Source: Mobula hypostoma (taxonomy: Eukaryota). From it: a stretch of DNA of 64,000 nucleotides. The notes under the pieces were generated by a model. The model searched no databases. It was not told where the DNA came from and worked only from the letters and a program-made list of their open reading frames with translations. The stretch spans positions 23,126,001-23,190,000 of the forward strand of contig NC_086108.1 in NCBI RefSeq assembly GCF_963921235.1. Direction: 5' to 3'. Shown piece by piece: positions 12,445 to 62,330 of the stretch. The first letter of the stretch is position 1. Every line of letters starts with the position of its first letter. A program made the translations under genes and the position numbers.

Positions 12445-13030
12445 AACATCAGATTTGATTAGGGAGCTTAAGGTAAAGAACCCTTAGGAGGCAGTGATTA
12501 TAATCTGATAGAATTCATTCTGGAGTTTGCAAAGGTGAAGCTAAAATTGATATACTGACATTACAGTGCAGTAAAGGTAAGTACTGAGACATGAGAGAGG
12601 AGCTGTTGAAAGTTGATTGGAAAAGGACACTAACATGGGTGATGATGGAACAGCAATGGCTGGAGTTTATGGAAGCAAATTGGAAGGCATGGGATTATTT
12701 CAGCACAAAGAAGAAATATCCTAAAGGGATGATGAGCCAATCGTGGCTGAGAAGGGAGGTCTAAGATAGCGTAAAAGCAAAAGAGAATGCATACAGTATT
12801 GCACAAAAATAGCAGAAAGTTAGGAGATTGGAAATGTACAGAAATCAAAAGGAAGTAACACAAACAATAAGGGAGAAAAGATGAATATGAGGGTAAGCTA
12901 GCTAATAATATAAAATAGGATAACAATTTTTTTCAGGTATCTCAGGAGTAAAGACAGGCAAGAGGAGACACTGGACTGCTGGAAAATGACACTGGATAAG
13001 TAGTAAGAGAGAACAAAGAAATATCACAAA
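12445..13030 (+). mobile_element. CR1-like LINE ORF2 fragment (endonuclease-RT linker), degenerate
   Basis: It is colinear with the CR1 copy at ~46020-46610 ('agggagcttaaggtaaagaacccttaggaggcagtgattataat', 'gttgattggaaaaggacac', 'aagctagctaataatataaaa'). Confidence 0.75.
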
Positions 13031-16000
13031 TATCTTCATCAGGACTCCCGATGAAGGATCTTGGCCCAAAACATTGACTGTTTATTCTTTTCCATACATG
13101 CTACCTGTCCTGCTGAGTTCTTCCAGCATTTTGTGTGTGTTGCTCTGGATTTTCAGCATCTACAGATTTTCTCATGTTTATGATTACCCGTCAACCATCT
13201 GGCTCATGAACCAGTGAGGATAACCTCACTCACATCAACACGGAACTGATTTCACAACCTATGGACTCACTTTCAAGGACCCTACAACTCATGTACCCAG
13301 TATCTATTATTTATTATTATTTTGTTTTTTCTTTTTTTTGTATATGCACCATCTGTTGTCCTTTGCACATTGGTTGTTTGCCCATATTTGTGTGCATTTT
13401 TCATTGATTCTATTGTGTTCCTTCTTAGTTACTGTGAATGCCCACAAGAAAATGAATCACAGGATAGTACATGGTGACATATATGTACTTGATAATAAAT
13501 TTACTTTGAACTTTGAAGTCATTGGGTATATTTAAAGTGGCGGTTGATAGCTTCTTTATTAATAAGGATGTCAAAGTTTTCAGGGAAAAGACAGGAGAAT
13601 GGGGTTGAGAGGAAATATAAATAAGCCATGGTTGAATGGTGGAGCATTCTCAATGGATCAAATGCCCTAGTTCTTATGGTCTTAACACTTGAATATTCAA
13701 GGAAGTACTCATTCAAATGACAACATACTTATTTAAAATATATTGGAATGAAATGTTAAGAAGAAACTATCCCATGAAAATGTGGTTTGTGTTGAATAAG
13801 GCTAGGAAGTGTGTGAAGGAAATGAGTTAATTTTGTCATGTGTTAATTGGAAGTTCAACTAAGATTAGAGGGCTTCACAGTAATTGATCATTCAAAATTG
13901 ATAAAATGGTGTTTTGTAACAGTTGGCAGAGAATTAACCCTGCAGTGTTCAGTTTTTGTTGAAGTTCAAAGGGAGTTTTGCGTTTGAAGTTAATGAAGCC
14001 TGTTTTTCATGCAAGTACACAATGGTTCATCACCCATTCCCCATTCTTGATACTAGATGTCCTTTCTGGTACCTTTGGGTGACAACCTATCCCAGGTGCT
14101 AAAATGACTTTGTCTTTGATGTTCTAATAGGTGAGGACACTTTGCTTTGCACTTTACACTTTTTTTTGTCTCCAAACTACTTGCACCTGATTAGACACCT
14201 AAGTTTAATGGTTTCAGTGGCAATTCTGGCATCAGCTTTTTGCCACACTGTGGGCCACGACAGTGGAAAACCATGAGGAATCGTAATGTTGGCAAAATCA
14301 CTCCTTCTTTCTTGTAGAATTCCTAGGTGCTGCACAGCAGTTCCTTTACTTGAAATAGTTTATTTCAAATACAATTTCACAAAAATGGTATTGACTTCAA
14401 AGGTGAGATTTCTCCATTTCTTGCTCTCCTTCTCCCTCTTTCTCTCTCTGTAGTGAAGTGCGGGTGGTCTGCAGTTCACCCTGAATAAATCTACTTTGCC
14501 TGTGGTCAGCAGGGGTGGCAAACTTTTAAAGCAATGTTGCATTCATTTCTAAAATAGTGTGCCAATCCATTGTGCCATCCAGTCTAATTGTGGTTGTCCA
14601 CCAATTCCATGTATCAATGCTAATCAAAATGAACCAGTTTCTTACTTCCTTACCATCTTTTTTTTCCTGTGGAGTTCTGATTTCTCTGAGTGACGCTGTA
14701 ATGGTTCAAGGAATGTCTGAAGGTGAGCCAGCACACTAGAGAATCTCCACAGGAGTGGCTTGATAGTACAAGTAGATACAGACATGGTAATGCTAACTTA
14801 CGTTACTTGCAATGATGATGACAAGCAACTGAAGGACTACTAAACCTGTCTGGATGCTAAATTATCCACTTACGTATACACAATCGGATGGACAAATTGA
14901 AATAGGACTGGCTCCAGAGTCAAACCTCCTGGTATGTCAGTAAGTCTTCATGTGGTGATTTGGCAGTACTGCTGTTTCACTAAGTTTTGGATGGCTTTGT
15001 CGGAGAGTCCTGTGGGACAGTTTGCTTTAGACAGTTTATATCTTGTACCTTGGCTGAATCTAGAGTGAAACTCAGATTTATTCAACAGACAGACCTGGCG
15101 GAGGAATTTTGAGCTTCCCTTCAAATATTAACCTGCTTCTTTCAAGGCATGCAGTTAACACAGGGCAGAAACTGTGAAAGGGCACCTAAATCAAATGAAA
15201 TTATTAACAACACTAAGCTTTGCCCATATATGAAAAGTATATGACATGTTTAGATTCTTTTCAGCTCTTCTTAATTTGTAGGAGGTAATGAAGGTCTCTT
15301 ATTCAATTTGAAGTTAACCCTTCAATTGCTTTTGTTATTACCACCATACAAATAGTACTCCAATGCCAGAGTCGAAGAATTAATCTTATAATGGGGATTG
15401 GGCAAGCTGGACTTTTAATTTGATCAGCATGCAGACTACCATAAGGTTGATGCTGCTGGGAACTCCAGATCTGATGCCCACTCAATGCCAATCTGATCCA
15501 GCCGTGATAGACTTGGTCTCACTTATTTCTGTGCTGCAAACACTGGCAGTGTTTCAACAATGACTCTTCCAGACCTTCACATTCTGTAAAGAACCTCTTC
15601 CATTTGACCTTATACCAGTCTGTTGTTCTGAACTCTTGCTCAGTGGCTGGTGACAGTCTGTATGTTTCCATCAGGCTATTGAGTAGATCTACAGAGAATC
15701 TTACCTGAGATTACATCTTTACAGAATATCCAGTGATGTTAGATAGTGTCAGGAGGCAAAACTGGCGTCTTGTTTGTGGCATTGCTTTTGGAAATAGCAC
15801 CTTGTTCCCTATAGCTGCCCCGCGACTGTGGTGTACAGTACATTTGAAAGTGATAGGTATGCGATTGAGCCAACAACTCGTGAGGAACTTTCTCTTATAT
15901 TTATGAATGTGAATCCTTGAAATGTTTTCTGATATTATTCATTAATTGTTCCTGAGTGGGCAAAATCTCCTTTCCTATCCCACCAACATAAACTTACGCT

Positions 16001-17971: not shown

Positions 17972-18584
17972 ATGCTGACCCTCGGCTTCCTATTTGCCCT
18001 GTGCGCTTCACTGGAGTTGCTGACATTCAGCTCGCCAGTCCGGGCGAGCTCGCATCGCCGCTACAAGAGGGCTCTGGCTGCCCGCGCCGAGTCCAGTCCC
18101 AGTCCCAGTCCCAGCCCCGGAGAGCAGCGCTGCTGGCCGGCAGAGAAGAGAGGCTGGGGCCGGCGAGTTGCCTCCACAGCCCAGCTCGCTCTGTACCCGT
18201 GGGCTGCGGAGTATGGACACCCGGAAGGCTGGAGCCGGGCGAGGAGCAGCTCATATCCTGATGGGAGCAGCCTGTACCTGGGCGGGGAGAGCAGCGGATA
18301 TCCCAGCGAGTGCGGCGGAGCTGCGGCCGCCAGGGGTTTCGGCTACCCCGGCGGAGGCAGCGGCTCGGCGGCGGCAGACAGCGCCGGAGGCGGCTTGCCA
18401 GCACCTCGAGGGTGGTCGTCGGGACCGGCGGAGTGCGACCCCTCCGTTGTCACGGCTGTCTATCTGTCCGGCGACAAGGGACGCCTGCAGCTGCGGCGAG
18501 ACTCAATAATGCCCCGGGGACGCTTCACCGCCGAGATGTGGCTGAAGCCCGAGGGAGGGCAGAACAACCCGGCTATCGTGGCAG
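17972..18584 (+). CDS. PAPPA2: Pappalysin-2 (PAPP-A2) first coding exon: signal peptide, propeptide and start of the LamG-like domain
   Basis: The ATG at 17972 has A at -3 and opens a hydrophobic signal peptide ([20 protein letters not shown]). 'GEQRCW..LALYP' resembles human PAPPA2 'EGERCW..FGVYP'. '[25 protein letters not shown]' matches PAPPA2 '[25 protein letters not shown]' better than PAPPA 'LRAEGGQRSPAVITG' (human sequences recalled). The exon ends at GCAG|GTAAGG in phase 1. Confidence 0.92.
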
Positions 18585-21269: not shown

Positions 21270-21640
21270 GCGTGGAGCCAAAAGAGTTGGAGGAGACCTT
21301 AAATGGTTTTTTTTGCATCTGTATTTACTTGGGAGATGGACACAGAGTTTCTAGAAGTGAGGCAAATCAGCAGTGAGGTCATAGACTACACAGATTTCAG
21401 AGGGGGAAGTGTTTGCTGCATTGAGGCAAATTAGGGTGAATAAATCCTCAGGGACTGACAAGGTGTTCACTCGGACCCTGTGGGAGGCAAGAGCAGAAAT
21501 TGCCAGGGCCTTAACAGAGATATTTAGACTCTTACCGATAGGTGAGGTAGCAGAGGATTGGAGGACAGCTAATGTTCCACTGCTTAAGAAAGGCTCTAAA
21601 ATAAACCAGGAAGTTATAGGCCAGCGAGCCTGACATCAAT
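21270..21640 (+). mobile_element. CR1-like LINE RT fragment
   Basis: ORF 21409-21633 'IRVNKSSGTDKVFTRTLWEARAEIARAL..EDWRTANVPLLKKG' is the CR1 region just upstream of the RT core. Confidence 0.8.
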
Positions 21641-22737
21641 AACACAAAATAATCTGCAGATGCTGTTGTCAAAGGAACACTCACAATGCGCTGGAGGAAC
21701 TCAGCAGGTCAGTCAGCATCAGTTGAAAAGATTAGTCCACGTTTTGGGCCGAAACCCTTCGTCAGGACTGAAGGAAGAACTTTGGGGAGGGTTTGAAGAA
21801 TGCTGGTAGTTGAAAAAAACAGTAATTTTAAAGACAAAGGGGTGGGGGAGGGGAAGCAGGGAGGTGATTGGCAGGAGAACAATGCGAAGTAGTAGAAGGA
21901 GGCGGAACTATGAGGGAGGTGATGTAAAATAGGGATAGAGGAAGGGAGGGGGAGGGAATTACTGGAAGTTGGAGAATTCTATGTTCATACCAAGGGGCTG
22001 GAGACTACCTAGACGGTATATGAGGTGTTGCTCCGCCAACCTGAGTTTAGCTTCATCATGGCAATAGAGGAGGCCATGTATGGACATATCTGAATGGGAA
22101 TGGGAAGCAGAGTTGAAGTGGATGGCTACCGGGAGATCCTGTCTGTTGTGGCGGACGGAGTGGAGGTGCTCGACGAAGCGGTCCCCCAATCTGCATCGGG
22201 TTTCACCGATGTAGAGGAGGCCGCACCGGGAGCACCGGATGCAATAGATGACCCCAACAGATTCGCAAGTGAAGTGTTGCCTCACCTGGAAGGACTGTTT
22301 GTGGCTTTGAATGGTGGCAAGATAGGAGGTGTAGGGACAGGTGTAGCACTTATGCTTACAGGCATAAGTGCTGGGTGGGAGATCCGTGGGGATAGACGTG
22401 CGGATAAGTGAGTCATGGAGGGATCGATCCGTGCGGAAAGCGGAGAGGGGTGGAGAGGGAAAGATGTGCTTAGTGATGGGGTCCTGTTGAAGGTGGCGGA
22501 AGTTGCAGAGGATAATGTGCTGGATCCGGAGGCTGGAGGGGTGGTAGGAGAGGACAAGGGGAACTCTGTCCCTGTTGTAGTGGTGGGAAGATGGGATGAG
22601 GGCCGAAGTGCGGGAAATGGAGGAAATGCGGGTGAGGGCATCATTGATCACCGTAGGAGGGAAACCATGATCCTTAAAGAAGGAGGACATTTGAGATGTC
22701 CTGGAACGGAAAGCCTCATCTTAGGAGCAGATGCAGC
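21640..22737 (-). mobile_element. Penelope-like element 3' portion with GIY-YIG endonuclease (left arm of an inverted pair)
   Basis: ORF 21959-22690 reads 'CKHKCYTCPY..FTCESVGVIYCIRCSRCGLLYIGETRCRLGDRFVEH..VAIHFN..EQHLIYRLGSLQPLGMN', a GIY-YIG domain with a Cys-rich linker. A 3' UTR and terminal repeat with a decayed hammerhead lie at 21734-21769. Confidence 0.9.
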
Positions 22738-22997
22738 TTTTGCAAATATTCAATGAAGCATTAATAATGAAAATGTGATTTATGAAAATGCTGTCCTCAG
22801 AATGTCTTTTACTCACGAATCAGTGAAGCTAATTCAGGGCCTTCAGTTCTTCATTTTCTGTAGGTATCCTTCATATACTTGTAAACAAAGTGCCCATCTC
22901 CCCAATGACATCATCTGAGTGGATGCATTTAAATATCTAGAGCAGCAAAAACATTTAAATATTCTCTCTCTTCCAGATCCTGACTTTCATTCAAACC

Positions 22998-23222
22998 TGA
23001 GAAAATCTGCAGATGCTGGAAATCCAAAGCAACACACACAAAATGTTAGAGGAACTCAACAGGCCAGGCAGCATCGATGGAAAAGAGTAAGCAGTTGATG
23101 TTTTGGGCTCAGACCCTTCACCAGTCCTGAAGAAGGGTCTTGGCCCAAAACATTGACTGTTCATTCTTCTGCATCGATGCTGCCCGACTTGCTGAGTTCC
23201 TCCAGCATTTTGTGTGTGTTGG
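22998..23222. mobile_element. Short fold-back element made of two inverted Penelope-like termini
   Basis: 'acacacacaaaatgttagaggaactcaacaggccaggcagcatcgatg..gacccttca' is followed by its reverse complement 'tgaagaagggtc..catcgatgctgcccgacttgctgagttcctccagcattttgtgtgtgt'. Confidence 0.8.
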
Positions 23223-23229
23223 CTTCACT

Positions 23230-24275
23230 CAAATCTCCCACCCCGCCACATGCAAAAATGCCATTCCCTATTCCCAGTTCCTCCGTCTCCGCCGCATCCG
23301 CTCCGAGGATGAGGCTTTCCATTCCAGGACATCTCAAATGTCCTCTTTCTTTCAGGATCGTGGTTTCCCTTCTACTGCCATCAAGGATGCCCTCACCCGC
23401 ATCTCCTCCATTTCCCGCACTTCGGCTCTCACCCCATCCTCCCGCCACCACAACAGGGACAGAGTTCCCCTTGTCCTCACCTACCACTCCACTAGCATCC
23501 GGATCCAGCACATTATCCTTCGCAACTTCTGCCACCTTCAACAGGACCCCACCACTAAGCACATCTTTTCCTCTCCACCCCTCTCCGCTTTACTCAGGGA
23601 TCGATCCCTCCGCGACTCCCTTATCCACATGTCCATCCCCACTGATCTCCCACCCGGCACTTATCCCTGTAGGCGTTAATTGCTACACCGGTCCCTACAC
23701 CTCATCTCTTGCCACCATTCAGGGCCCCAAACAGTCATTCCAGGTGAGGCAACACTTCACTTCAGAGTCTGTTGGGGTCATCTATTGCATCCGGTGCTCC
23801 CGGTGCGGCCTCCTCTACATCGGTGAAACCCAACGCAGATTGGGGGACTGCTTCACCGAGCACCTCCAGTCCATCCACCACAACAGACAGGATTTCCCAG
23901 TAGCCACCCACTTCAACTCTGCTTCCCATTCCCATTCAGATATGTCCATACATGGCCTCCTTTACTGCCATGATGAGGCTAAACTCAGGTTGGAGGAGCA
24001 ACACCTCATATACCATCTAGGTAGTCTCCAGCCCCTTGGTATGAACATAGAATTCTCCAACTTCCGGTAATTCCCTCCCCCTCCCTTCCGCTATCCCTAT
24101 TTTACATCACCTCCCTCATAGTTCCACCTCCTTCTACTACTTTGCATTGTTCTCATGCCAATCACCTCCCTGCTTCCTCCCCCACCCTTTTGTCTTTAAA
24201 ATTACTGTTCTTTTCAACTACCAGCATTCTTCAAACCCTCCCCAATGTTCTTCCTTCAGTCCCGACGAAGGGTTT
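23230..24275 (+). mobile_element. Penelope-like element 3' portion with GIY-YIG endonuclease (right arm of an inverted pair)
   Basis: 'KNAIPYSQFLRLRRI' (PLE RT C-terminal region) runs to 'VIYCIRCSRCGLLYIGETQRRLGDCFTEH..GMNIEFSNFR*' with one frameshift near 23675. It is a close inverted copy of 21760-22737. Confidence 0.9.
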
Positions 24276-24589
24276 CCCGAATGCAAGCTCGATTTTAAAA
24301 TTTAAGAGAAGTTTATGTAGGTACATGGATGGTAGGGGTACAGAGGGCTATGGTCTGGGTGCAGTTCAATGGGACTAGGTAGCTCAAATGGTTTGGCAGG
24401 ACTAGTTGGGCTGAAGGGCCTGTAATTTTCTGTGCTGTATTTTCTATAAGTCTGTGATTCTGTCTACACCTACAGCAGGTATTTCATTGCTCCAAATTTA
24501 CGTTAATTCCAGTGGCATCACCAAAACCAATTTAACACCTACTGCAGGGATATCAGCTCGGTTAATTCTACACCAATACTAGAGATATA

Positions 24590-28740: not shown

Positions 28741-29497
28741 TTATTTGCAGCAACTTCAAAACACAACAGAACCAATGAAAAATTGCTCACAAAAATGGAC
28801 AGACAGCCAATGTGCAAAAGACAACAAATTGTGCAAATTCAGAAAAACATAATAATAATATATAACTAATAAATATTGAGAACATGAGTTGTAGAGAACT
28901 TGAAAGTGAGTCCATAGAGCTTTAGGTCATTAACAGTAGCATTAACAACTTCATTATCTCTGCTAGTCAATAGTTTAATTACTTCTATCACACTTTTAAC
29001 AAAGGTAATTTATCTTCATCCCAAGTATCAATATATGTCATATCATTATCACTGTTACCATATGCGAACAAAAGACTACCTATCCACATCCCCTGCTGAA
29101 GAACAATATACTGTTTTGTTGATTAGTATATTAATGAATTAATACCAAAGGTTTTAGTCGAGTTTAAATCCCCTTGGGGCAACTGACAGTTTGTAATTCA
29201 AGTAATTAAGTAAATCTTGAATTTAAAAACAAGGCTAATGTCAGTCATGTTAACCATAGAGTTATCAGAGTGTTGTAAAAACCCATCTGGTTAATAGATT
29301 CTTCTCGGGCTTCCTGACAGATACAAGTATCAATTTTAACTGACAAACTCTGCCATTTTTATCAGGGATGATGCCTAGGCATGTCTGGTCTGGTGGTATA
29401 TATACTCCAATCATCCATCCCTCCTCATACAAACAAGAGAAAATCAGGCAGATGCTGGAAATCCAAGCAACATACACAACATGCTAAGTTCCACCAG

Positions 29498-29502
<5 letters not shown>

Positions 29503-29554
<52 letters not shown>
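29503..29554 (+). repeat. (TG)n microsatellite expanded inside a Penelope-like terminus
   Basis: Perfect TG run that grows out of the 'ccagcattttgtgtgtg' end of the PLE terminal repeat. Confidence 0.95.
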
Positions 29555-29558
<4 letters not shown>

Positions 29559-29689
29559 TTGCTTGTCCATCTCTTCTGATTGGTTAGCTCTCAACCAATC
29601 AGGTTTCCACTGTCCGACCTTGAATTCCAGTTCTTACTGAGAGCAAGACCATTGTCCTTGTTAAAGATCAGTTCTTTTTCTCATTTTAT

Positions 29690-31965: not shown

Positions 31966-32218
31966 CCACTGTAGTTGATGAGAATGTGGGGAGAAGTCAG
32001 CGGGAATGAAGCAGGATTGATGCAAATAGGGAGCTGGTGGTTGGGCTAAATAGACTGTTTCTGTGCTGGACCTCTCTATGACACATGTTCTGAGTATATC
32101 TTGTCCCCCAGAGTCAGTGTTGGCTTCAGAGTTGGTGAGGATATTGGGAGACTGAAGGAACACACATAAAGTTGCTGGTGAATGCAGCAGGCCAGGCAGC
32201 ATCTATAGGAAGAGGTAC

Positions 32219-32254
32219 AGTCTACGTTTCGGGCCGAGACCCTTCGTCAGGACT
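32219..32254 (-). ncRNA. Minimal type I hammerhead ribozyme (PLE-associated), GUA cleavage triplet
   Basis: The minus strand reads AGUC-CUGACGA-A-GGGUCUCGGCCC-GAA-ACGU-A-GACU. The core is intact, stem I is AGUC/GACU, stem II is GGGU/GCCC, and stem III is reduced to palindromic ACGU. Confidence 0.75.
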
Positions 32255-32976
32255 AACTGGAAGAAGAGCTAGTAAGAGATTTGAAAGTGGGAGGGGAGGG
32301 GGAGGGGGAGATCCAAAATAGTAGGAGAAGACAGGAGGGGGAGGGATGGAACCAAGAGCTGGACAGTTGATTGGCAAAAGGGTTATGAGAGGATCATGGG
32401 ACAGGAGGCCAGGGAGAAAGAAAAGGGGGAGGGGGAAAAACCCAGAGGATGGGCGAGAGGTATAGTGAGAGGGACAGAGGGAGAAAAAGGAGAGAGAGAG
32501 AAAAAAAATGTGTGTATATAAATAAATAACGGATGGGGTACGAGGGGGAGGTGGGGCATTAGCGGAAGTTTGAGAAGTTGATGTTCAAGCCATCAGGTTG
32601 GAGGCTACCCAGACAGAATATAAGGTGTTGTTCCTCAAACCTGATGGCATGAACATTGACTTCTCAAACTTCCGCTAATGCCCCACCTCCCCCTCGTACC
32701 CCATGCGTGATTTATTTATATACACACATTCTTTGTCTCTCTCTCCTTTTTCTCCATCTGCCCCTCTCACTATACCCCTTGCCCATCTTCTGGGCTTTTT
32801 CCCCCCTCCCCCTTTTCTTTCTCCCTGGCCTTTGTCCCATGATCCTCTCATATCCCTTTTGCCAATCACCTGTTCAGCTCTTGGCTCCATCCCTCCCCTT
32901 CCTGTCTTCTCCTAACATTTCGGATCTCCCCCTCCCCCTCCCACTTTCAAATCTCTTACTAGCTCTTCTTTCAGTT

Positions 32977-33012
32977 AGTCCTGACGAAGGGTCTCGGCCC
33001 GAAACGTCGACT
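32977..33012 (+). ncRNA. Minimal type I hammerhead ribozyme (PLE-associated), GUC cleavage triplet
   Basis: The sequence is AGUC-CUGACGA(32981-32987)-A-GGGUCUCGGCCC-GAAA(33001-33004)-CGUC-GACU. Stem I is AGUC/GACU, stem II is GGGU/GCCC and stem III is palindromic ACGU. Predicted cleavage is after C33008. Confidence 0.8.
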
Positions 33013-33914
33013 GTACCTCTTCCTATAGATGCTGCCTGGCCTGCTGCGTTCACCAGCAACTTTTATGTGTGTTGCTTGAAATTCCAGCATCTGCAGATTT
33101 CCTCATGTGTGGGAGACTGAAGGAAATTTCTTAAGGCACGACAAAAATCATGTGTATTATCATCTACACAAATACACAGGTGCAAAGAAAAACTTACTTG
33201 TAGCCGTATCACAGGCACATACAGTGAATCAGAGACACAATATTCACAAGAAAAGCATAAATTAAAAATAAATTATATTAAATTGTTCAATAGAGAACAC
33301 AATTAGAATGGAAAAAAAAGTCCATTGTATTGCAATATGATCAAAGTGGTCATCATGTTACTATACTGAGGTAGTGATTAAGGATGCGTGGGTTGAGTCA
33401 AGACCCAGACAGCTGAAGTGAAGTAGCTGTTCTTGAACTCTGTTCAAGTTTCTGTACCTCCTGCCTGATGATAGCTGTAAGAAGATGGCATGGCCGGGAA
33501 GGTATGGGTATTTCTGATGATGGGGTGGGATTTGCCAGTGAGGTATTGGGCTGACCCAAGGCATCATTTGTGCAGTTTTCTGAATGGAATAAAAATTGGA
33601 ACTTTTAAGAAGAATAAATGTTCTTATTCACTAATGTTCTGCTTCAAAATTGGGCTCAACCAAGATTACTTAGAAGTTGTCTGAGTGATGGGGAAGACCA
33701 TCAACAAACTGCAAGAACCTAAATGGCCATTATAGATCTCTGTGAATATACATGTTTTTTGTTATCTCTAACTTGACAATATAATAAACACATACATGCG
33801 TAATTTTAACTCTAACTTTTTAAGATGGTTGTACCATAGCTGATCTCAGACCAGTTTTCACAATCTGATTCCTGCACAGTGACCACACTGCTAGGTTTAG
33901 TAGTGGAGCTGGGA

Positions 33915-34330
33915 TGGGGTTGGCACAGTGGTACAGCTGGTAGAGCTGCTGCCCCACACCCAAGTTCTCCCTCGATCTCTGGTGCTGTTTGGAGCTTGTG
34001 TGTTTTCCCTGTGACTTTCCTATGAGTGTTCCAGTTTCTTTCCACATCTGAAAGACCTGTGACTTGATATATTAAGTGGTCACCATAAATTGCTCCTGGT
34101 GTGTAATGAAAAATAAAGTGGTGGAGGAACTAAGTGGGTCAGGGCAGCATCAGTAGAGGTAGAGAGGTGCTGACTACTCCTCTGCCTCCATAGATGCTGC
34201 CTGACCCACTGATTGCCTCCACCAGTTTATTTTTCACTCCACACTCCAGTATCTGCAGCCTCTTTTGGCCTCCAGTGTGTAGGTGAATGGTACAATCTTG
34301 AGGGCTACCAAGGGGGATGTAGGGAGAATA
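33915..34330 (+). mobile_element. V-SINE interrupted by a short PLE-terminus fold-back (~34110-34270)
   Basis: The SINE head 'ggcacagtggtacagctggtagagctgctgcc' and V-domain run to ~34105. They are followed by the hairpin 'aaaataaagtggtggaggaactaagtgggtcagggcagcatc..gatgctgcctgacccactgattgcctccaccagtttattttt', and the SINE resumes at 'gtgtgtaggtgaatgg'. Confidence 0.65.
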
Positions 34331-35597
34331 AAATAGGATTAATGTTAATGTCTGCAAAAAAATTATTCCCGTTAATGTATTTCAATATTAAATTTACTTT
34401 GATATTAAATTTACCTTAAACTCAGTATGAAAGAGCATTTGATGCTCATTGTGGATGCAATGAGCTGCTTCCATTTCATTTGACTCTATAGCACAGATTC
34501 AATTCAATCTGACATTTTTGAAAATCAGCATACTGTCCTCCCTGGTATACATTACAATGACCTTGAAGGCCAAGTCAAAATAAGGCTGAATAACAAATGC
34601 TTGTCACAATATGCGCTGACAATGTCGAAACCCAAGAGCAGAGGAAAGACAATGTATAGACAGCAATCAAAGTTTATTCATTAGAATTCCAAAGGAACAT
34701 TGGTGGTTTGGCTGAGTGACACTGTGAGACCTAATATAACATTCTTAAAACTAGGAGCCGCAATTAGCACTAATCAGGAATCTGCTTAAATAATACAAGT
34801 AGCAGAAAATCTCCGAGCCTAGTTTAAACAGAAAGCACGAGGAGACCGCATTACAAAGAGTGAGTCGCTCGAGAAAACACTCCAGCAACTCTAAACGATT
34901 TACAACTCCCATTGAAAAACAATTAGCCATTTCAGGTGCTTTAAAACCCTCGGAGACCAATGCTCTATGGCTCCCCCGACAAGCCAGAAGAGCTCATTAC
35001 AGTTCTTCCTTGAATCACGTCCAAAAGGACTTTTCATTCAGCATCAGAAGAAGAAATAAAGATCCTCTCACTACTGAACACAGCTGATATCCTGTTGGCA
35101 GTGTCCAAAGGACACCATTGATAGAGGTTTTTAAACTTCTACCTTGTCCCCCATTTTTTTGGACAAAATAACAACTTCCGTTTATATAGTACCTTCAGCA
35201 TAGGATAACATTACAGCATATTATTCAGAAAGAATGTCACAAAATTTGATGTAATGCTCTGTAATCTTAAAACAGGGTGACCAAAAGCTCGATCCAGTTG
35301 CAGGTTTTAGAGAGTGAAAGGCAGAGAGGGTTAAGGAAGGATTTGCAGAGCTTGGATTCAATGCTCAATGTTCAGTTGTTAATGATAAAGTGTTTAAAAA
35401 CTGGGAATGGACACAAAGGTAGAGATCTCAAACTGAAATAGTACCTTACACTAAGAAGCTAAATGGAAACGTTAAGGTATCGTGAATGTTGATATATGCT
35501 TGTTACCTGATCTAAGGGTGGCGTGGGAAGAGGGTGATCAGTGGTAGGTGGAATTTGTAGGGATAATGATATCCTGAGAAATGTGTAGGGAATCTTT

Positions 35598-39597: not shown

Positions 39598-40907
39598 TGT
39601 CATGGTTCAGTCTGTGAAGTCCGCATTCCGGTTCACGGTCCGGTCCATCGACCCTTGCTCCAGGTTTTCCTGTCTACCCTGTTTCTGTTCCTGTTGAGCA
39701 CTAATTGAGGCAGCTGATTCTCGTTGGGGCTGGCTGCATAAATACCTTCAGAGACCAGGACATGGCTGCTGGTTTGTTCTTGTCCTTACTCCTTGTATCC
39801 CTTCCCCTGCCTTCTGTTTTCTCGCCTTGCATTGCCTAAAGCCTTGCCTTGTCTTGCCGATAACTCTCGCCTCGCCTGAAGTTCTTGTCTCACCTTGCAT
39901 TGCCTGAAGCCTTGCCTTGTCTTGCTGGTAACTCTCGCCTCGTCTCGCTTGAGATCTTGTCTTGGCCCACCCTGAACCTAGCTCCCTTCCTGTCCCTTGC
40001 CTCCATCGGGTAAGCCAGGCCAGATTGCCGTTACCCTGCGGTGGGTCCTGTCCCTTCCTGCCCCTTGCCTCCGTCGAGTAAGCCAGGCCAGATTGCCGTT
40101 ACCCTGCGGTTGGTTCTGTCCCTTCCTGTCCCTCACTTCTGTCGGGTGGAGATCTGCGCCCTGCCCAGGAGTACCACGCCCTGCCCAGGAGGAGCTTCAA
40201 CACCCCAAGACTTGAGCCTCGCCCCAAGCCAAGCTTCAAGACCCCAAGTCTCGAGCCTCGCCCCAAGCCAAGCTTCAAGACCCCAAGTCTCGAGCCTCGC
40301 CCCAAGCCAAGCTTCAAGACCCCAAGTCTCGAGCCTCGCCCCAAGCCAAGCTTCAAGACCCCAAGTCTCGAGCCTCGCCCCAAGCCAAGCTTCAAGACCC
40401 CAAGTCTCGAGCCTCGCCCCAAGCCAAGCTTCAAGACCCCAAGTCTCGAGCCTCGCCCCAAGCCAAGCTTCAAGACCCCAAGTCTCGAGCCTCGCCCCAA
40501 GCCAAGCTTCAAGACCCCAAGTCTCGAGCCTCGCCCCAAGCCAAGCTTCAAGACCCCAAGTCTCGAGCCTCGCTCCAAGCCAAGCTTCAAGACCCCAAGC
40601 CTCAAGTCTCTGGTCTCCAGCCTCGCCTCAAGTCTCTGGTCTCCAGCCTCGTCCTGCCTGCTGGCCAAGTCACGTCCTTGCCTAGTTCTGGGGTCCGAGC
40701 CAGAGGCAAGACCCAGGTTTTGGGTCCTTGTCCAGTCTCTGGCTTGGAGTCCAAGCCCGTACTCCTAGCTCTCTTGTCCAGTCCTGTTCCAGGTTCCCGG
40801 TTTTCGTGTCCATGTCCTGGCCCTCGGTCTGCATCCTAGTCCTGTCCGTAGTACTTCAGTGTCTGTATCTTGCACTTGGGTCCGTTCCCAGCCACCTCCT
40901 TATGACA
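39598..40907 (+). mobile_element. Gypsy/Ty3-like solo LTR (~1.3 kb)
   Basis: It starts TGTCAT (39598) and ends ATGACA (40907), giving inverted TG..CA termini. The flanks are GGGCC (39593-39597) and GGGCT (40908-40912), a 5-bp TSD with one mismatch. It has a TATA-like CATAAATA at ~39737 and the 3' 'cttgcacttgggtcc' motif seen in fish Gypsy LTRs. No gag or pol lies adjacent. Confidence 0.75.
40214..40603 (+). repeat. 39-bp tandem repeat, 10 copies, inside the solo LTR
   Basis: The unit GAGCCTCGCCCCAAGCCAAGCTTCAAGACCCCAAGTCTC starts at 40214, 40253 and so on to 40565. Nine copies look identical and the last has two substitutions. Confidence 0.95.
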
Positions 40908-41029: not shown

Positions 41030-42290
41030 TCCCTATGTCATACTTGACCAATCTATTGGAGTTTTTTGAGGAGGTTACCAGGAAAATGGATGAAGGAAAG
41101 GCAGTGGATGTTGTCTACATGGACTTCAGTAAGGCCTTTGACAAGGTCCCACATGGGAGGTTAGTTAGGAAAATTCAGTCGCTAGGTATACGTGGAGAGG
41201 TGGTAAATTGGATCAGGCATTGACTCAATGGAAGAAGCCAAAGAGTGGTAGTAGAGGATTGCTTCTCAGAGTGGAGGCCTGTGACTAGTGGTGTGCCACA
41301 GGGATCAGTGCTGGGTCCATTGTTATTTGTCATCTATATCAATGATCTGGATGATAATGTGGAAAATTGGATCAGCAAATTTGCTGATGATACAAAGATT
41401 GGAGGTGTAGTGGACAGTGAGGAAGGATTTCAAAGCTTGCAGAGGGATTTGGACCAGTTGGAAAAATGGGCTGAAAAATGGCAGATGGAGTTTAATACAG
41501 ACAAGTGTGAGGTACTGCACTTTGGAAGGACAAACCAAGGTAGATGGTAAGGCACTGGGGAGTGCAGTAGAACAGAGGGATCTGGGAATACCGATACAAA
41601 ATCCCCTAAAGGTGACGTCACAGGTAGATAGGGTCGTAAAGAGAGCTTTTGATACATTGGCCTTTATTAATCAAAGCATTGAGTATAAGAGCTGGAATGT
41701 TATGATGAGGTTGTATAAGGCATTGGTGAGGCCGAATCTGGAGTATTGTGTTCAGTTTTGGTCACCAAATTACATGAAGGATATTAATAAGGTTGAAAGA
41801 GTGCAGAGAAGGTTTACAAGGATGTTGCCAGGACTTGAGAAACTCAGTTACAGTACAGAGAAAGGTTGAATAGGTTAGGATTTATTCCCTGGAGCGTAGA
41901 AAAATGAGGGGAGATTTGATAGTGGTATATAAAATTATGATGGGTATAGATAGAGTGAATGCAAGCAGGCTTTTTCCACTGAGGCAAGGGGAGAAAAAAA
42001 CCGGAGGACATGGGTTAAGGGTGAAAGGGGAAAAATTTAAAGGGAACATTAGGGAAGGCTTCTTCACACAGGGTGTGGTGGGAGTGTGGAATGTGCTGCC
42101 AGATGAGGTGGTAAATGCGGGTTCTTTATTAACATTTAAGAATAAATTGGACAGATACATGGATGGGAGGTGTATAGAGGGATATGGTCCGTATGCAGGT
42201 CAGTGGGACTAGGCAGAAAATGGTTCGGCACAGCCAAGAAGGACCAAAAGGCCTGTTTCTGTGCTGTAGTTTTTCTATGGTTTCTATGTT
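41030..42290 (+). mobile_element. CR1-like LINE, 5'-truncated RT and 3' end
   Basis: It contains 'LTNLLEFFEEV..VYMDFSKAFDKVPH', '[32 protein letters not shown]' and 'LVRPNLEYCVQFWSP', with a (TTTCTATG)n tail. Confidence 0.92.
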
Positions 42291-45099: not shown

Positions 45100-48000
45100 C
45101 CTTCAGGCAGATGAATGCATGGCTGAGAGACTGGTGCAGGGGGCAGGGCTTCAGATTCTTGGATCATTGGGATCTCTTCTGGGAGAAGTATGACCTGTTC
45201 AAAAAGGATGGGTTACACCCGAACCCGAAGGGAACCAATATCCTGGTGGGAAGGTTTAATAGAGCTGTTAGGGAGGGTTTAAACTAACTTGGCAGGGGGA
45301 TGGGAACCGGAATGGTAGAGCGGAGGAGGGGGAAAGCAGAAATAAATCTAAGATAGTGAGCAGTAAAGATGTCAGGAAGGACAGGCAGGTGATGAGGCAA
45401 ATTTGCAGCCATTGGGATGAGTTGCAGTGCAATCAAAGCAAAAAGTACCAAATACTGGACTTAAGGTGTTATACTTAAATGCATACAGCATAAGGAATAA
45501 GGTGGATGATCTTGTCGTACAGCTACAGATTGGTAGGTATGATATTGTGGCCATCACTGAGATGTGTCTAAAGGATGCATGTCTCTGGGAGCTGAACGTC
45601 CAAGGGTACACGGTGTATCGGAAGGATAGGCAGGTAGGCAGAGGGGGTGGCGTGGCTTTATTGGTAAGAAATGATATTAAATCATTAGGAAGAGGTGACA
45701 TAGGATCAGAAGGTGCAGAATCTTTATGGGTTGAGCTAAGAAATAGCAGGGGTAAAAGGACCCTGATGGCAGTTATTTATAGGCCTCCAAACAGCTGAAC
45801 TGATGTGGACTACAAATTACAACAGGAAATAGAAAAGGCTTGTCAGAAGGGCAGTGTTATGATAATTGTGGGGGATTTCAACATGCGAGTGGATTGGGAA
45901 AATCAGGTCGGCACTGGATCTCAAGAGAGAGAATTTGTAGTGTCTATGAGATGGCTTTTTAGAACAGCTTGTTGTTAAGCCCACTAGGGGATCGGCGGTA
46001 CTGGATTGGGTATTGTGTAATGAACCAGAGGTGATTAGAGAGATTGAGGTGAAGGAACCCTTAGGAGACAGTGATCATAACATGATTGAGTTCACTGTGA
46101 AATTTGAGAATGAGAAGCCGAAATCCGATGTGTTGGTATTTCAGTGGAGTAAAGGAAATTACAGTGGCGTGAGAGAGGAACTGGCCAAAGTTGACTGGAA
46201 AGGGACACTAGCAGGAAGGCCAGCAGAGCAGCAGTGGCTGGAGTTTATGTGAGAAGTGAGGAAGGTGCAAGACAGATATATTCCAAAAAAGAAGAAATTT
46301 TTGAATGGAATAGGGATGCAACCGTGGCTGACGAGAGAAGTCAAAGCCAAAGTTAAAGCAAAGGAGAGGGCATACAAGGAAGCAAAAATTAGTGGGAAGA
46401 CAGGATTGGGAAGTTTTTAAAAGCTTACAAAAAGAAACTAAGAAGGTCATTAAGAGAGAAAAGATTAACTATGAAAGGAAGCTAGCAAATAATATCAAAG
46501 AGGATACTAAAAGCTTTTTGAAGTATATAAAGAGTAAAAGACAGGTGAGAGTAGATACAGGACCGATAGAAAATGATGCTGGAGAAATTGTAATGGGAGA
46601 TAAGGAGATGGTGGAAGAAAAGAATGAGTGTTTTGCATCAGTCTTCACTGAGCAGTATACCGGACACTCAAGGTTGTCAGGGAAGAGAAGTGTGCGCAGT
46701 CACAGTTACGACAGAGAAAGTACTCAGGAAGCTGAATAGTGTAAGGGTAGATAAATCTCCCAGACCAGATGGAATGCACCCTCATGTTCTGAAGGAAGTA
46801 GCTGTGGAGATTGCGGATCTTTCAAAAGTCAACAGATTCTGGCAAGGTTCTGGTGGACTGAAAGATTGCAAATGTCACTCTGCTATTTAAGAAGGGGGCA
46901 AGGAAGCAAAAAGGAAATTATAGACCTGTTAGCCTGACATCGGTGGTTGGGAAGTTGTTGGAGTTGATTGTCAAGGATGAGGTTACGGAGTACCTGGAGG
47001 AATATGACAAGATAGGCAGAACTCAGCATGGTTTCCTTAAAGGAAAACCCTGCCTGACAAACCTATTGCAATTTTTTGAGGAAATTATAAGTAGGCTAGA
47101 CAAGGGCGATGCAGTGAATGTTGTATATTTGGATTTTCAGAAGGCCTTTGACAAGGTGCCACACATGAGGCTGTTAAACAAGATAAGAGCCCATGGAATT
47201 AAGGGGAAGTTACATACATGGATAGAGCGTTGGCTGATTGGCAGGAAACAGAGAGTGGGAATAAGGGGATCCTATTCTGCTTGGCTGCCGGTTACCAGTG
47301 GTGTTCCACAGGGGTCAGTGTTGGGGCCGCTTCTTTTTACGTTGTACATCAACGATTTGGATTATGGAATAGTTGGCTTTGTGGCTAAGTTTGCTGACTA
47401 TATGAAGATAGGTGGAGGGGTCGGTAGTGCTGAGGAAACAGAGTCTGCAGAGAGACTTGGATAGATTGGGAGAATGAGCAAAGAAGTGGCAAATGAAATA
47501 CAATATTGGAAAGTGTATGGTTATGCACTTTGGTAGAAGAAATAAATGGGCAGACAATTATCTAAATGGGGAGAGAATTCAAAGTTCTGAGATGCAATGG
47601 GATTTGGGAATCCTCGTGCAGGATACCCTTAAGGTTAACCTCCAGGTTGAGTCAGTAGGGAAGAAGGCGAATGCAATGTTGGCATTCATTTCTAGAGGAG
47701 TAGAGTATAGGAGCAGGGATGTGATGTTGAGGCTCTATAAGGCACTGGTAAGACCTCACTTGGAGTACTTTGGGCAGTTTTGGTTTCCTTATTTAAGAAA
47801 GGATGTGCTGACATTGGAGAGGGTTCAGAGAAGATTCACTAGAATGATTCCGGGAATGAGAGGGTTAACATATGAGGAACATTTGTCCGCTCTTGGACTG
47901 TACTCCTTGGAGTTTAGAAGAATGAGGGGGGACCTTATAGAAACATTTCGAATGTTGAAAGGCATGGACAGAGTGGATGTAGCAAAATTGTTTCCCATGA

Positions 48001-48315
48001 TGGGGGAGTCTAGTACGAGAGGACTTGACTTAAGGATTGAAGGGCGCCCATTCAGAACAGAAATGTGAAGAAATTTTTTTAGTCAGAGGGTGATGAATCT
48101 ATGGAATTTGTTGCCACGGGCGGCAGTGGAGGCCAAGTCATTGGGTGTATTTAAGGCAGAGATTGATAGGTATCTGAGTAGCCAGGGCATCAAAGGTTAT
48201 GGTGAGAAGGTGGGGGAGTGGGACTAAATGGGAGAATGGATCAGCTGATGATAAAAAGGCGGAGCAGACTTGGTGAGCCGAATGGCTGACTTCTGTTCCT
48301 TTATCTTATGGTCTT
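45100..48315 (+). mobile_element. CR1-like LINE: end of ORF1 plus complete but broken ORF2 and 3' UTR
   Basis: The ORF1 tail ('FRFLDHWDLFW..KKDGLHPN') is followed by APE ('LYLNAYSIRNKVDDL..VAITE..GDFN..SDHNMIEF'), RT ('[30 protein letters not shown]') and the C-terminus. There are multiple stops and frameshifts and a (TCTTATGG)n tail. Confidence 0.93.
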
Positions 48316-51884: not shown

Positions 51885-54800
51885 ATAGACAATAGGTGCA
51901 GGAGTAGACCATTCGGCCCTTTGAGCCAGCACCACTATTCACTGTGAATATGGCTGATCATCCACAACCAGTACCCTGTTCCTGCCTTCTCCCCATATCA
52001 CTTAACTCCACTATCTTTAAGAGCTCTATCTAACTGTTTCTTGAAAGCATCCAGAGAATTGGCCTCCATTGCCTTCTGAGGCAGAGCATTCCATTGATCC
52101 ACAACTCTTTGGGTGAAAAAGTTTTTCCTCAACTCCGTTCTAAATGGCCTACCCCTTATTCTTAAACTGTGGCCTCTGGTTCTGGACTCCCCCAACATCG
52201 GGAACATGTTTCCTGCCTCTAGCGTATCCAATCCCTTAATAACCTTGTATGTTTCAATCAGATCCCCTCTCACCCTTCTAAATTCCAGTGTATACAAGCC
52301 CAGTTGCTCCAATCTTCCAATATATGACAGTCCTGCCATGCCAGGAATTAACCTCGTGAACCTACGCTGCACTCCCTCAATAGCTAGAATGTCCTTCCTC
52401 AAATTTGGAGACCAAAACTGCACACAGTACTCCAGGTGGGGTCTCACCAGGGCCCTCTACAACTGCAGAAGGACCTCTTTGCTCCTATACTCAACTCCCC
52501 TTGTTATGAAGGCCAGCATGCCATTAGCTTTCTTCACTACCTGCTGTACCTGCATGCTTACTTTCAGTGACTGATTAACAAGTACACCTAGATCTCATTT
52601 TACTTCTCCTTTTCCTAACTTGACACCATTCAGCTAGTAATCTGCCTTCCTGTTCTTGCCACCAAAGTGGATAACCTCACGTTTACCTACATTAAATGGC
52701 ATCTGCGCACTCACCCAGCCTGTCCAAGTCACCCTGCATTCTCATAACATCCTCCTCACATTTCACACTGCCACCCAGCTTTGGGTCATCTGCAAATTTG
52801 CCAATGTTACTTTTAATCCCTTCATCTAAATCATTAATGTATATTGTAAATAGCTGCGGTCCCAGCACCGAGCCTTGCGGTACCCCACTAGTCACTGCCT
52901 GCCATTCTGAAAAGGACCCGTTAATCCCTACTCCTTGTTTCCTGCCTGCCAACCAATTTTCTAGCCATGTCAGTACCCTACCCCCAATACCATGTGCTCC
53001 AATTTTGCCCACTAATCTCCTACGTGGGACCTTATCAAAGGCTTTCCGAAAGTCCACTACATCCACTGGTCCATTTTCATAGTTACATCCTCAAAAAATT
53101 CCAGAAGATTAGTCAAGCATGATTTCCCCTTCATAAATCAATGCTGACTCGGACCGATCCTGTTACTGCTATCCAAATGTGCCACAATTTCATCTCTTAT
53201 AATTGTCTCCAGAATCTTCCCCACCACTGATGTCAGGCTAACTGATCTATAATTCCCAGATTCTCTCTCCCTCCTTTCTTAAAAAGTGGGATAACCTTAG
53301 CTACCCTCCAATCCACAGGAACTGATCCTGAATCTATAGAACATTGGAAAATGATTACCAGTGCGTCCACGATTTCTAGAACCACCTCCTTAAGTACCCT
53401 GGGATGCAGACCATCAGGCCCTGGGGATTTATCAGTCTTCAGTCCTATCAGTCTATCCAAAACCATTTTCTGCCTTATGTGAATTTCCTTCAGTTCCTCC
53501 GTTACCCTAGGTCCTCTGGCCACTATTACATCTGGGAGATTGTTTGTGTCTTCCCTAGTGAAGACAGATCCAAAGTACCTGTTCAATTCGTCTACCATTT
53601 CTTTGATCCCCATAATAAATTCACCTGTTTGTCTTTAAGGGCCCAACTTTGTTCCTAACTGATTTTTTCCTCTTCACATACCTAAAGAAGCTTTTACTAT
53701 CCTCCGTTATATTCTTGGCTAGCTTACCTTCGTATCTCTTTTAGTTATTCGGACTCTGGATCTGATGAGCTCAGCTCCACAAATACTGCCTTCCCTGAGA
53801 ACTGTTTCCAGCAGTTACTGTTTTGTTTTCAGATTCACATTATCTGTAGCTTTTGTTATTCAAATAACTTAAGGTACAAAGGCCAATCGTACTACTTAAC
53901 AAAACTGGTATTATTGCCCACTCCTTGATGCATAAAGATTCATCTTCCATTCAGGATTTAGAATCCAGGTTTGCTTTTACGCTCCAGAATAAGGTAGTAT
54001 TTGAAAACTGAAATAAGCTGGATACTATTTAACCAAGCAAGGCATTACCAAGTATGATTTTTTAGTTATCTTTTGTTGCTCTTTAAAAGTTTCCCAATCC
54101 TCTGGCTTCCTGCTCATCTTTGTTATGTTATACTGCATCTCTTTTATTTTTATACTATCCTTGACTTCCCTTGTCAGCCACGGTCGCCCCTTACTCCCCT
54201 TAGAATCTTTCTTCCTCTTTGGAGTGAACTGATCCTGCACCTTCTGTATTATTCCCAGAAATACCTGCCATTGTTGTTTCACTGTCATCCCTGCTAAGGT
54301 ATCTTTCCAGTCAACTTTGGTCAGCTCCTCCCTCATGGCTCCATGACACTTCCGATCTTCCCTTCTCCCTCTCAAAATGTAGATTAAAACTTATCATATT
54401 ATGGTCACTACCTCCTAATGGCTCCTTTACCTCGAGTTCTCTTATCAAATCCGGTTCATTACACAACACTAGATCAAGAATTGCGTTCTCTGTGGTAGGC
54501 TCCAGTACAAGCTGCTCTAAGAATCCATCTCGGAGGCACTCCACAAACTCCCTTTCTTGGGGTCCAGTACCAGCCTGATTTTCCCAGTCTACCTGCATGT
54601 TGAAATCCCCCATAACAACCGTAGCATTACCTTTGTGACATGCCAATTTTAACTCTTGATTCAACTTGCACCCTATATCCAGGCTACTGTTTGGGGGCCT
54701 GTAGATAACTGCCATTAGGGACTTTTTGCCCTTACAATTTCTCAGTTCTATCCATACTGACTCTACATCTCCTGATTCTACGTCACCCCTCGCAAGGGAC

Positions 54801-55700
54801 TGAATTTCATTCCTCACCAACAGAGCCACTCCACCTCCTCTGCCCACCTGTCTGTCCTTTTGATAGAACGTATACCTTGAATATTCATTTCCCAACCCTG
54901 GTCCTCTTGCAGCCATGTCTCTGTTATTCCTACAACATCATACTTGCCGATTTCCAACTGAACCTCAAGCTCATCCACTTTGTTTCTTATACTTCGTGCA
55001 TTCATATATAATACTTTTAATCCTTTACTCCCCTCACCTTTCACATCGATTTCTATTGCACTTGGCCATACTCTCCAATCCCTTCCTGAGCTTTCTGCCC
55101 CATTAATTCTGTTGTCTTTCTTAACTTTCCTTATTCTCTCTTTCCCTTTAACTGCATCCTTATGTTTCCGGTTCGTCTCCTCCCCCCCGCCCCACTACTT
55201 AGTTTAAACACACCTGTGTTGCAGTGGCAAACCTGCCTGCCAGAATGCTGGTCCCCCGCCTGTTAAAGTGCAACCCGTCCCTTTTGTACAATTCATCCTT
55301 ACCCCAAAACAGATCCCGGAGGTCTAAGAATCTAAATCTCTGCTTCCCGCACCAGCTCTTCAGCCACACATTCAGATCCCCTATCTCCCTGTTCCTGCCC
55401 TCACCAGCACGAGGAACTGGAAGCAAACTGGAGATAACCACCCTGCAGGTCCTGCTTTTCTGCCTTCTTCCGAGTTCCCTGAAGTCACGCTGCAGAATTT
55501 CTTTCCTCTTTTTCCCGATGTCATTTGTGCTGACATGCACCACCACTTCCGGCTGTTCACCTTCACTCTTGAGGATGCCCTGCAATAGGTCCGTGACGTC
55601 CTGGATCCTGGCACCAGGGAAGCAACACGCCATCCTTAAATCTTGCCTGTTGCCACAGAAACCCCTTTCTGTACCTCTCACTATGTTTTCCTCACCTAAA
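51885..55700 (-). mobile_element. CR1-like LINE: ORF1 esterase part plus broken ORF2, with a ~320-bp internal insertion
   Basis: ORF 55199-55711 is SGNH-like ('VVVHVSTND..RDGLHFN'). APE lies at 54311-55044, RT at 52692-53613 ('KFADDPKLGG') and the C-terminus at 51998-52447. Unrelated sequence occupies ~53750-54055. Confidence 0.92.
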
Positions 55701-56664
55701 GTGAACTGCAAATGAACTTAATTCATTTTCTTAGATGCTGCCTGACCTGCTGAGTTCCTCCAGCATTTTGTGTGCGTTTGTTGCCCTGGATTTCCAATGT
55801 CTGCTGAATCTTCTGTGTTCCAAACTAATCTGCTTTGTGCTTTTAAAAAGTGTACAGGAATTTTTAGAAGCATTGATCCTGAATCTCATTGTTTGGCATC
55901 CCAGAGAGATCATCTGGTTAAACAATAAACAGTCAAGCCATACGAATCATAAGCTTAGTTCATTTGTTCTGCAAGAAAAAAAATTGGAGATAGTAATGTT
56001 AAAAGGCAGGACTATGCAAAACAGTTTGTGGTAAATAGACAAGAAGCTTCTGGATTCATTCTCACTAAACATTCCAAAGTTTTTACCTTTGACATTGATG
56101 GAGTGTTCAATTCTGTTTTTGTAAGTGACAAAAAAGAATTAAATTGTGGTTATTTTGGGGATTTTGCCAATGTTCAAAAGGGAATTGATGTCTGTAGTGC
56201 CAAGCCATATATACTGAAGGATTGCTGGTTCAATTTCTGTTTTGTACTGTGTTATTTTATTTGAACTCACATGCTGATCCAGTCCCTGAGCTTGAGAATA
56301 AGGTCCACGTAAGATCGGCCATGTATTTCTTACAAGTGTCCAGACATCAGAAAATCTTTATTGGACTTGAAACAGAGAGATGTCCTGAGATGATGAAATA
56401 TGCTGTGTAAATGCAAACTGCTATCTTCACTCCTTGGCGACAGAGGAAAATGGATGCATATCAGTGTCTTCTGCCATGCTGCCTAGTTACCTTGTGACCA
56501 ATTGAAAATCCAGATGTGGGTAATTATGACTTTAACTAGATTGTGCGCAATCATTTGGTGTGTGGTTTCAGCACTCATTAATGCAGTTTGAGAATTGACA
56601 CCATCATCTTTTGTGAGGTAAAGAGCTGTGAGTGCTTTGTTACTTCAGTTATTGCTTACTGGTG

Positions 56665-62164: not shown

Positions 62165-62330
62165 ACACAGTTTGGACTGTGGGAGGAAACCAGTGCACCT
62201 GGGGCGGGGTGGGGGAAACACTTGAGGTGACAGTCGGAAAGTGCAAACCCCACTCAGACAGCACTAGAGATTGGGTTTGAACCTAAGGAACTGCAGCTGT
62301 GGAGCAACAGTCCTACCAACTCTATGGCCG
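62165..62330 (-). mobile_element. V-SINE (HE1-like) whose 5' end abuts the 33-bp minisatellite
   Basis: The reverse complement has B-box GGTTCAAACC, 'ggggtttgcactttcc' and V-domain 'aggtgcactggtttcctcccacagtccaaac'. Confidence 0.7.

Follow-up and report, generated by a model that had tools for sequence, protein, structure and literature searches.

We analyzed a 64-kb stretch of DNA, hereafter the window, in which a pappalysin-like coding exon lies on the plus strand at positions 18449-18584 (PAPP-A2, E 3e-8; PAPP-A, E 1e-6) with a GT donor at 18585. After 18600, no further pappalysin exon was recognized by eye among seven stop-free plus-strand frames of at least 200 aa. Because no such frame follows, and the next pappalysin exon is presumably about 1 kb long, the insertion studied here (32145-33125) is probably intronic. 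The repeat content suggests a ray or shark as the host. The window also holds broken non-LTR retrotransposon ORFs (AP endonuclease-RT) at 3299-6091 (plus strand, with a weak Pfam Exo_endo_phos_2 match), 41059-42103, 45106-48169 and 52026-59826, the last three of which we take to be CR1-like from their appearance. Self-BLAST offsets and ORF repeats revealed tandem arrays at 62327-64000 (period of ~66 nt) and 40193-40654 (~39 nt).

The insertion contains two inverted 3' ends of a Penelope-like retrotransposon (PLE) between two copies of a target-site duplication (TSD). Its features are as follows.

32145..32160, plus strand: left copy of the TSD, 16 bp, located by motif search
32161..32644, minus strand: left arm, a 5'-truncated PLE 3' end without a tail, defined by alignment, translation and family contigs
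32219..32254, minus strand: minimal type-I hammerhead motif with a GUA triplet and a stem III (AC/GU) without a loop
32593..32604, plus strand: first half of a native 12-bp inverted repeat, in the LQPD codons of the minus arm
32605..32632, minus strand: 28-nt spacer, single copy, sense on the minus strand and so part of the tail-less arm
32633..32644, no strand: junction overlap common to both arms, now 11/12 identical
32633..33109, plus strand: right arm, a 5'-truncated PLE 3' end with the tail present, defined by the arm alignment
32977..33012, plus strand: minimal type-I hammerhead motif with a GUC triplet, nominal cut after 33008
33072..33109, plus strand: PLE "tail" of 38 nt (32 nt when a 6-nt overlap with the left TSD is discounted), right arm only
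33110..33125, plus strand: right copy of the TSD, an exact 16-mer; the alignment of an organism C contig begins at 33110

To the BLAST comparison the two arms were inverted repeats with 90% identity over 936 columns. Global alignment of arm against arm gave 26 substitutions in 436 columns (6.0%) and five internal indels, bearing out an earlier note on this DNA that had read the insertion as two inverted PLE 3' ends. The left arm comprises the last ~28 codons of the GIY-YIG ORF, a pyrimidine-rich 3' UTR, the hammerhead, and the whole of an internal inverted repeat with its spacer. Past 32644, ordinary copies of the family continue with other sequence (710, 838 and 1128 contigs in runs X2, X5 and X9), which fixes the truncation point of the left arm at that position. 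At the other extreme, the family 3' end falls at 33108 (447 X2 and 545 X5 contigs), and the left arm is without the final 38 nt that the right arm carries at 33072-33109. This tail, which the earlier note overlooked, is the most informative feature of the insertion. EN+ PLEs are marked by a 30-40-bp tail on one insertion end and by an inverted, 5'-truncated adjoining copy in a TSD-flanked unit, and both marks were found here, the tail being 38 nt long and confined to the right arm.

The 26 residues at the inner end of the minus arm match the C-terminus of a neighboring PLE copy (21959-22720) at 19 of 26 positions (E 1e-11), and the insertion shares 76% nucleotide identity with this copy over 103 nt. 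Against Pfam GIY-YIG, the neighboring copy scores 20.4 bits (E 6e-4), short of the curated cut-off of 22.6, and it has two cysteines between its GIY and YIG motifs. A CX2-5CxxC motif upstream of GIY-YIG is described as a Neptune/Nematis-type PLE feature (PMC8557442). It occurs in the related copies at 21959-22720 and 727-1299; the corresponding region is missing from the insertion, which retains only ~28 codons and no RT core. The insertion is thus a PLE 3' end and, by association, probably of the Neptune type.

The exact 16-mer TGGGAGACTGAAGGAA flanks the two arms at 32145-32160 and 33110-33125. Five matches at up to 3 mismatches were found in the 64-kb window, and these two were the only exact ones. 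By chance, two identical 16-mers would lie within ±10 nt of the two ends with a probability of ~1e-7, so the 16-bp direct repeat reported earlier stands. The last 6 nt of the left TSD resemble the inner 3' end of the element (5/6 match), and the left boundary is therefore blurred by up to 6 nt. That the 16-mer belongs to the element consensus was rejected, because the copies of the family diverge from the reference at 33108 and continue in mixed sequence, not in the 16-mer (447 X2 and 545 X5 contigs, agreement 0.44). A MITE or another DNA transposon was also rejected: the two TSD copies are not flush with terminal inverted repeats, since the 38-nt tail separates the mirror end of the right arm from the TSD, and the sequence is that of a retroelement 3' end.

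Read contigs of four organisms (A, B, C and D), one run each, were aligned to 32593-34700; the runs came from a right-flank search in which 18 of 21 rows, under four organism labels, contain part of the flank. In organism C, a 1310-nt contig aligns to 33110-34212 with its letters 3-1094. Its other 216 letters start at the first TSD base, and among the matches listed none of them falls on either strand of the right arm. This is the signature expected of a single-copy empty site in organism C, as judged from the right-side contig boundary. The site is filled in organism B, where a contig crosses the tail into the flank (33084-33477, 394 nt, 9 differences). A contig of organism A matches the tail-TSD-flank junction over 396 nt with 0 differences; this run is possibly the source of the window and so does not count as independent. 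For organism D (X13), no contig among those listed spans 33110, which makes it uninformative on the empty site. The empty site sought in the earlier note is therefore matched, on the right side of the insertion, by the contig that starts at 33110 with no listed arm. Likewise, on the right side, the side testable, there was no sign of the two arms having inserted independently.

We asked whether the pair could reflect two independent side-by-side insertions or an assembly artefact. The family is very abundant and the left junction lies outside the read comparison, which leaves some room for such an origin. However, a single TSD pair surrounds the two arms, which adjoin without intervening target DNA, the 26 substitutions and five indels are unlike a duplicated read, and the tail-TSD-flank junction recurs in contigs of A (0 differences) and B (9 differences). 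We regard this explanation as the most improbable of those considered. The exact flanking 16-mer and the empty-site signature in organism C support the single integration event with a true TSD that had been proposed. Taken together, we are highly confident that the insertion is a dead, doubly 5'-truncated GIY-YIG Penelope-like retrotransposon formed in one event.

To understand how the arms were joined, we examined the junction. The element has a 12-bp inverted repeat of its own, with halves 28 nt apart in the RLE codons and the LQPD codons. Both halves and the spacer are in the left arm, and the right arm starts at the second half. Position 32637 is A here and C in two other window copies and in the family consensus of the contigs; the 12-nt overlap is therefore native to the element. 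Contig loose ends behind 32636 also begin with C. The earlier note had seen AACCTGA (32638-32644) in both arms and taken it for a 7-nt microhomology at which the arms were joined. The shared motif and the join at a microhomology hold, but the overlap extends over 32633-32644 (11/12) and is the native inverted repeat, not a chance 7-mer; a single substitution, in this copy or in its template, accounts for the shorter figure. The translation of the minus arm reads RFEEQH here, not RLEEQH.

None of 200 shuffles contained such an inverted repeat, a test that is partly circular since 32633-32644 is common to both arms, and we therefore put the weight on the other copies. As single-stranded DNA, the 52-nt stem-loop is predicted to be unremarkable in stability (−7.6 kcal/mol, z −1.3, equaled by 27 of 200 shuffles). 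The fold of 32585-32655 gave z −5.4, but it includes right-arm bases and so overstates the native hairpin. Opposite-strand joints at 32593-32645 and 32600-32638 were not counted as recurrent fold-backs, because ordinary unfolded copies would give them. Elsewhere in the window, an AT-rich, 67-nt imperfect palindrome (84%) at 7393-7459 is not evidently of PLE origin.

With somewhat more confidence than doubt, we propose that the insertion formed by cDNA priming at both target nicks, the strands being joined at the native inverted repeat. The PLE protein would nick each target strand, the two nicks being offset by 16 nt. Of the exposed 3' ends, that of the top strand would prime cDNA at an inner RT start site and so produce the left arm, which lacks the tail, and that of the bottom strand would prime at an outer start site and so include the tail. 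Synthesis from the inner site would halt just past both halves of the 12-bp repeat, and the 3' end of this cDNA would pair with the first half. Its partner would be either the same cDNA (snap-back), in which case a short tail cDNA would capture the resulting copy, or the second cDNA, following behind it along one and the same RNA. Gap filling and ligation would yield arm, spacer, arm and tail between two TSD copies. For the Anolis PLE PAc, both strands are cleaved and extended, two RT start sites bracket the tail, which is the stretch between them, and a dimer is modelled (PMC11167929). In the published in vitro data, the start sites show no strand preference (PMC11167929).

Pure snap-back of one target-primed cDNA was rejected: begun at the inner site, such a cDNA could not supply the tail, and begun at the outer site it would place the spacer in the tail arm, unless the spacer was flipped later. 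On this geometry a single snap-back cDNA fails, and two-nick priming would work. A related route is self-priming on an antisense template, in which the strand folds at the palindrome into a free hairpin that the endonuclease integrates, trimming one tail. It was proposed for head-to-head PLEs with junction palindromes by Arkhipova et al. 2013 (PMC3846280), and the tail has been ascribed to EN-mediated resolution (PMC8557442). It gives the same head-to-head layout with the spacer in the first arm, but barring trimming it predicts a tail on both arms, and the in vitro work explains the tail by two start sites on target-primed sense RNA (PMC11167929). We consider this origin unlikely.

Priming at both nicks can also be viewed against other fold-backs of the window. 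Three more one-tailed fold-backs were found, at ~22999-23223, 29429-29565 and 34108-34260, and the readable fold-back junctions sit at short native inverted repeats. Flanking-repeat scores at the predicted ends of the first two were modest (8.0 and 7.5; the 95th percentile of the null is 7.5). The first (22986-23236 in its full extent) is a mini fold-back in which two PLE 3' ends meet at a tiny palindrome immediately 5' of the hammerhead core, with the tail on the left and an 11/13 flanking repeat; a longer plus-strand PLE fragment begins at its right edge. GIY-YIG PLE fragments at 21635-22737 (minus) and 23235-24276 (plus), 92% identical over 988 columns, lie head to head ~500 nt apart with this mini fold-back between them, possibly as a compound insertion. 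The second (29414-29580) is very short, with the tail on the left, a (GT)n expansion from the tail-less end and a 12/15 flanking repeat. The third (34099-34260) has its center near the hammerhead cut-site palindrome and its tail on the right; the center is near-symmetric, the spacer unreadable, and a degenerate 13-14-nt candidate TSD was picked out by eye. It predates the main insertion, because organism C contigs enter it from both sides. In addition, a tail-bearing PLE 3' end at 13030-13180 follows a ~15-nt inverted stub of its own hammerhead core.

Five centers were examined for the position of the spacer. The center at 13034, where the spacer lies away from the tail arm and the other arm is a stub, was excluded from the count. 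In the three readable cases (the main insertion, 22999-23223 and 29429-29565) the spacer is in the tail-less arm, a post hoc outcome with a chance of 1 in 8 that is subject to arm recombination, which can flip the spacer. Tentatively, then, the spacer arm of PLE fold-backs may always be the tail-less arm, as the footprint of one complex priming at both nicks; in this rule the inner-start cDNA would lead and join at whichever native inverted repeat it had just copied. Beyond the four papers cited here, we found no publication on the dual-nick model, the spacer rule or cartilaginous-fish PLE fold-backs in a search of literature listings whose coverage was weak for subscription papers and older Drosophila Penelope work; a preprint (10.64898/2026.07.22.740005) likewise contained no relevant passage for six terms. 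The origin of PLE inverted and tail structures has been called undefined (PMC8557442), and the steps beyond first-strand synthesis unvalidated (PMC11167929).

Short inverted repeats are known as seeds of fold-back duplications, and a single PLE copy might have been folded back at the DNA level at the 12-bp inverted repeat, where replication switched templates or a break was repaired. However, the left arm ends at a known tail-less position, flush with an intact TSD, no inverted duplication of flank DNA accompanies the arms, and the layout is repeated at three more window sites. An origin of this kind is very improbable.

The divergence of the arms bears on whether they were alike at birth. Flank divergence, summed from the contig table, was 28/~1674 (1.7%) between A and B and 91/~1062 (8.6%) between A and C. 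The 6.0% between the arms falls between these values, which allows that the arms were identical at birth and have since drifted 6% apart. Substitutions are unevenly spread, with 23 in the 300 inner columns versus 3 in the 136 outer columns (Fisher p 0.028, post hoc). Uniform drift accounts for this clustering less well than gene conversion or two different templates would. As for CpG decay, one site has decayed in opposite ways in the two arms; of the 10 sites at which at least one arm has CG, only 3 are decayed in one arm, with one double decay besides. We therefore weighed twin priming on two RNAs, each from a different source copy and annealed to one another at the inverted repeat, so that the arms were unlike from birth. 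The uneven substitutions and the small number of one-arm CG decays favor it, as do paralog contigs that insert a C behind 32831/32832, the left-arm state (21 and 38 contigs, X2). However, no head start is required for a divergence inside the A-B to A-C bracket, and two independent RNAs would not explain why all three readable cases have the spacer in the arm that lacks the tail. We judge this variant to be quite unlikely.

The family itself appears very differently in the four organisms. Summed depth over 32735-32805, which does not equal copy number, was 949,433 in A, 1,254,126 in B, 135 in C and 9 in D; deep coverage in A and B versus near absence in C and D fits a burst of the subfamily after the split from C. 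In X2, 98,776 contigs matched the stretch 32593-34700, flank repeats included.

Both hammerhead cores are intact where they had been reported, GUA on the minus strand and GUC on the plus strand, so that each arm has a hammerhead motif near its 3' end, as in EN+ PLEs and in agreement with the min-HHR description. Rfam at the gathering score gave 0 matches, which is no evidence against the hammerheads since the library misses such minimal motifs. Exact and degenerate hammerhead patterns found 0 loci in viral_contigs and 0 in metagenome_contigs. As in the min-HHRs of metazoan PLEs, the type-I core has an extra nucleotide before helix II, a G10.1-C11.1 pair, a palindromic 15.2-16.2 and no loop 3 (PMC4209133). 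Opposite-strand hammerhead pairs also occur in Schistosoma mansoni PLEs, 100-700 bp apart (PMC4209133); the spacing here, ~720 nt, is just outside this range. In four runs, 691, 795, 550 and 228 contigs stop matching exactly at 32977, the 5' base of hammerhead stem I, and the sequence before it is mixed and pyrimidine-rich, representing other subfamilies' divergent UTRs or short copies starting there.

The RNA fold of the insertion is predicted to be a single long hairpin (−850 kcal/mol, equaled by 0 of 20 shuffles), consistent with the ~430-bp hairpin suggested earlier. In this model each motif is ~97% paired to the opposite arm, with a stem II probability of ~1e-22; when the 3' end is folded alone, the stem I probability is ~0.02. 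A transcript of either strand would contain a single sense motif, preceded by its antisense partner, and neither strand offers helices I-III in one transcript or a second sense copy for a dimer. Minimal hammerheads with no helix III loop show no detectable monomer cleavage and low dimer activity (PMC4209133). The Anolis motif needs protein for cleavage and is dispensable for in vitro insertion (PMC11167929). We therefore rejected two active ribozymes, given the loopless stem III and the modelled antisense pairing. The earlier idea of a ribozyme on whichever strand is transcribed holds for sequence but not for function: the hammerheads of the insertion are probably inactive, with trans pairing or protein help still conceivable.

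The insertion resembles L1 twin priming, in which both nicks prime cDNA and a microhomology join yields an inversion within one TSD. In L1, the arms derive from separate parts of the RNA that do not overlap, whereas in the present insertion the same 3' end was copied into each arm, so that the two make a palindrome. A close published likeness is with Pen2a_Av and other Pen2 derivatives of Adineta vaga, which have a head-to-head, inverted, 5'-truncated copy with a TSD round the unit (PMC3846280; scheme in PMC8557442). Pen2a_Av also has a 30-40-bp tail at one end and a junction overlap or palindrome of 15 bp, compared with 12 bp here. Unlike in A. vaga Pen2, both arms break off inside the final EN codons, and no ORF separates them. 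The TSD measures 16 bp, compared with 8-10 bp in the A. vaga cases (PMC3846280), and the overlap lies within coding sequence, not at a pLTR 5' end. The typical Penelope structure is described as an inverted pLTR, a TSD, a 31-bp tail and a 15-bp overlap, with junction palindromes read as self-priming (PMC3846280), and an inverted truncated copy with a one-ended tail as common to PLEs (PMC8557442). The architecture of the insertion is thus the published typical PLE arrangement, and opposite-strand hammerhead pairs are also published (PMC3846280, PMC8557442, PMC4209133).

The Anolis carolinensis Poseidon element PAc, of the Penelope/Poseidon clade, is alike in that two 3' termini bracket the tail, and nicking and extension of both strands would yield the present structure (PMC11167929). 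That study gives no account of how an inverted junction forms, and found no primer-template homology for PAc; here 5 of 6 nt match at the inner start.

As a single locus, the insertion is minor, one of very many dead PLE copies, and nothing suggests a host function; its value is that of a clean, dated example. Its likely effect, judged from the fold model, would be to place a long dsRNA in a pappalysin pre-mRNA intron with the hammerheads locked inside, and such PLE fold-backs place long dsRNA in introns. Should the spacer rule prove true of thousands of copies, it would link the pair of RT start sites seen in vitro with the pair of target nicks and would distinguish the dual-nick model from antisense self-priming. 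In that event, counting the abundant fold-backs of this lineage would offer a test of the unsolved second-strand step in PLE transposition.
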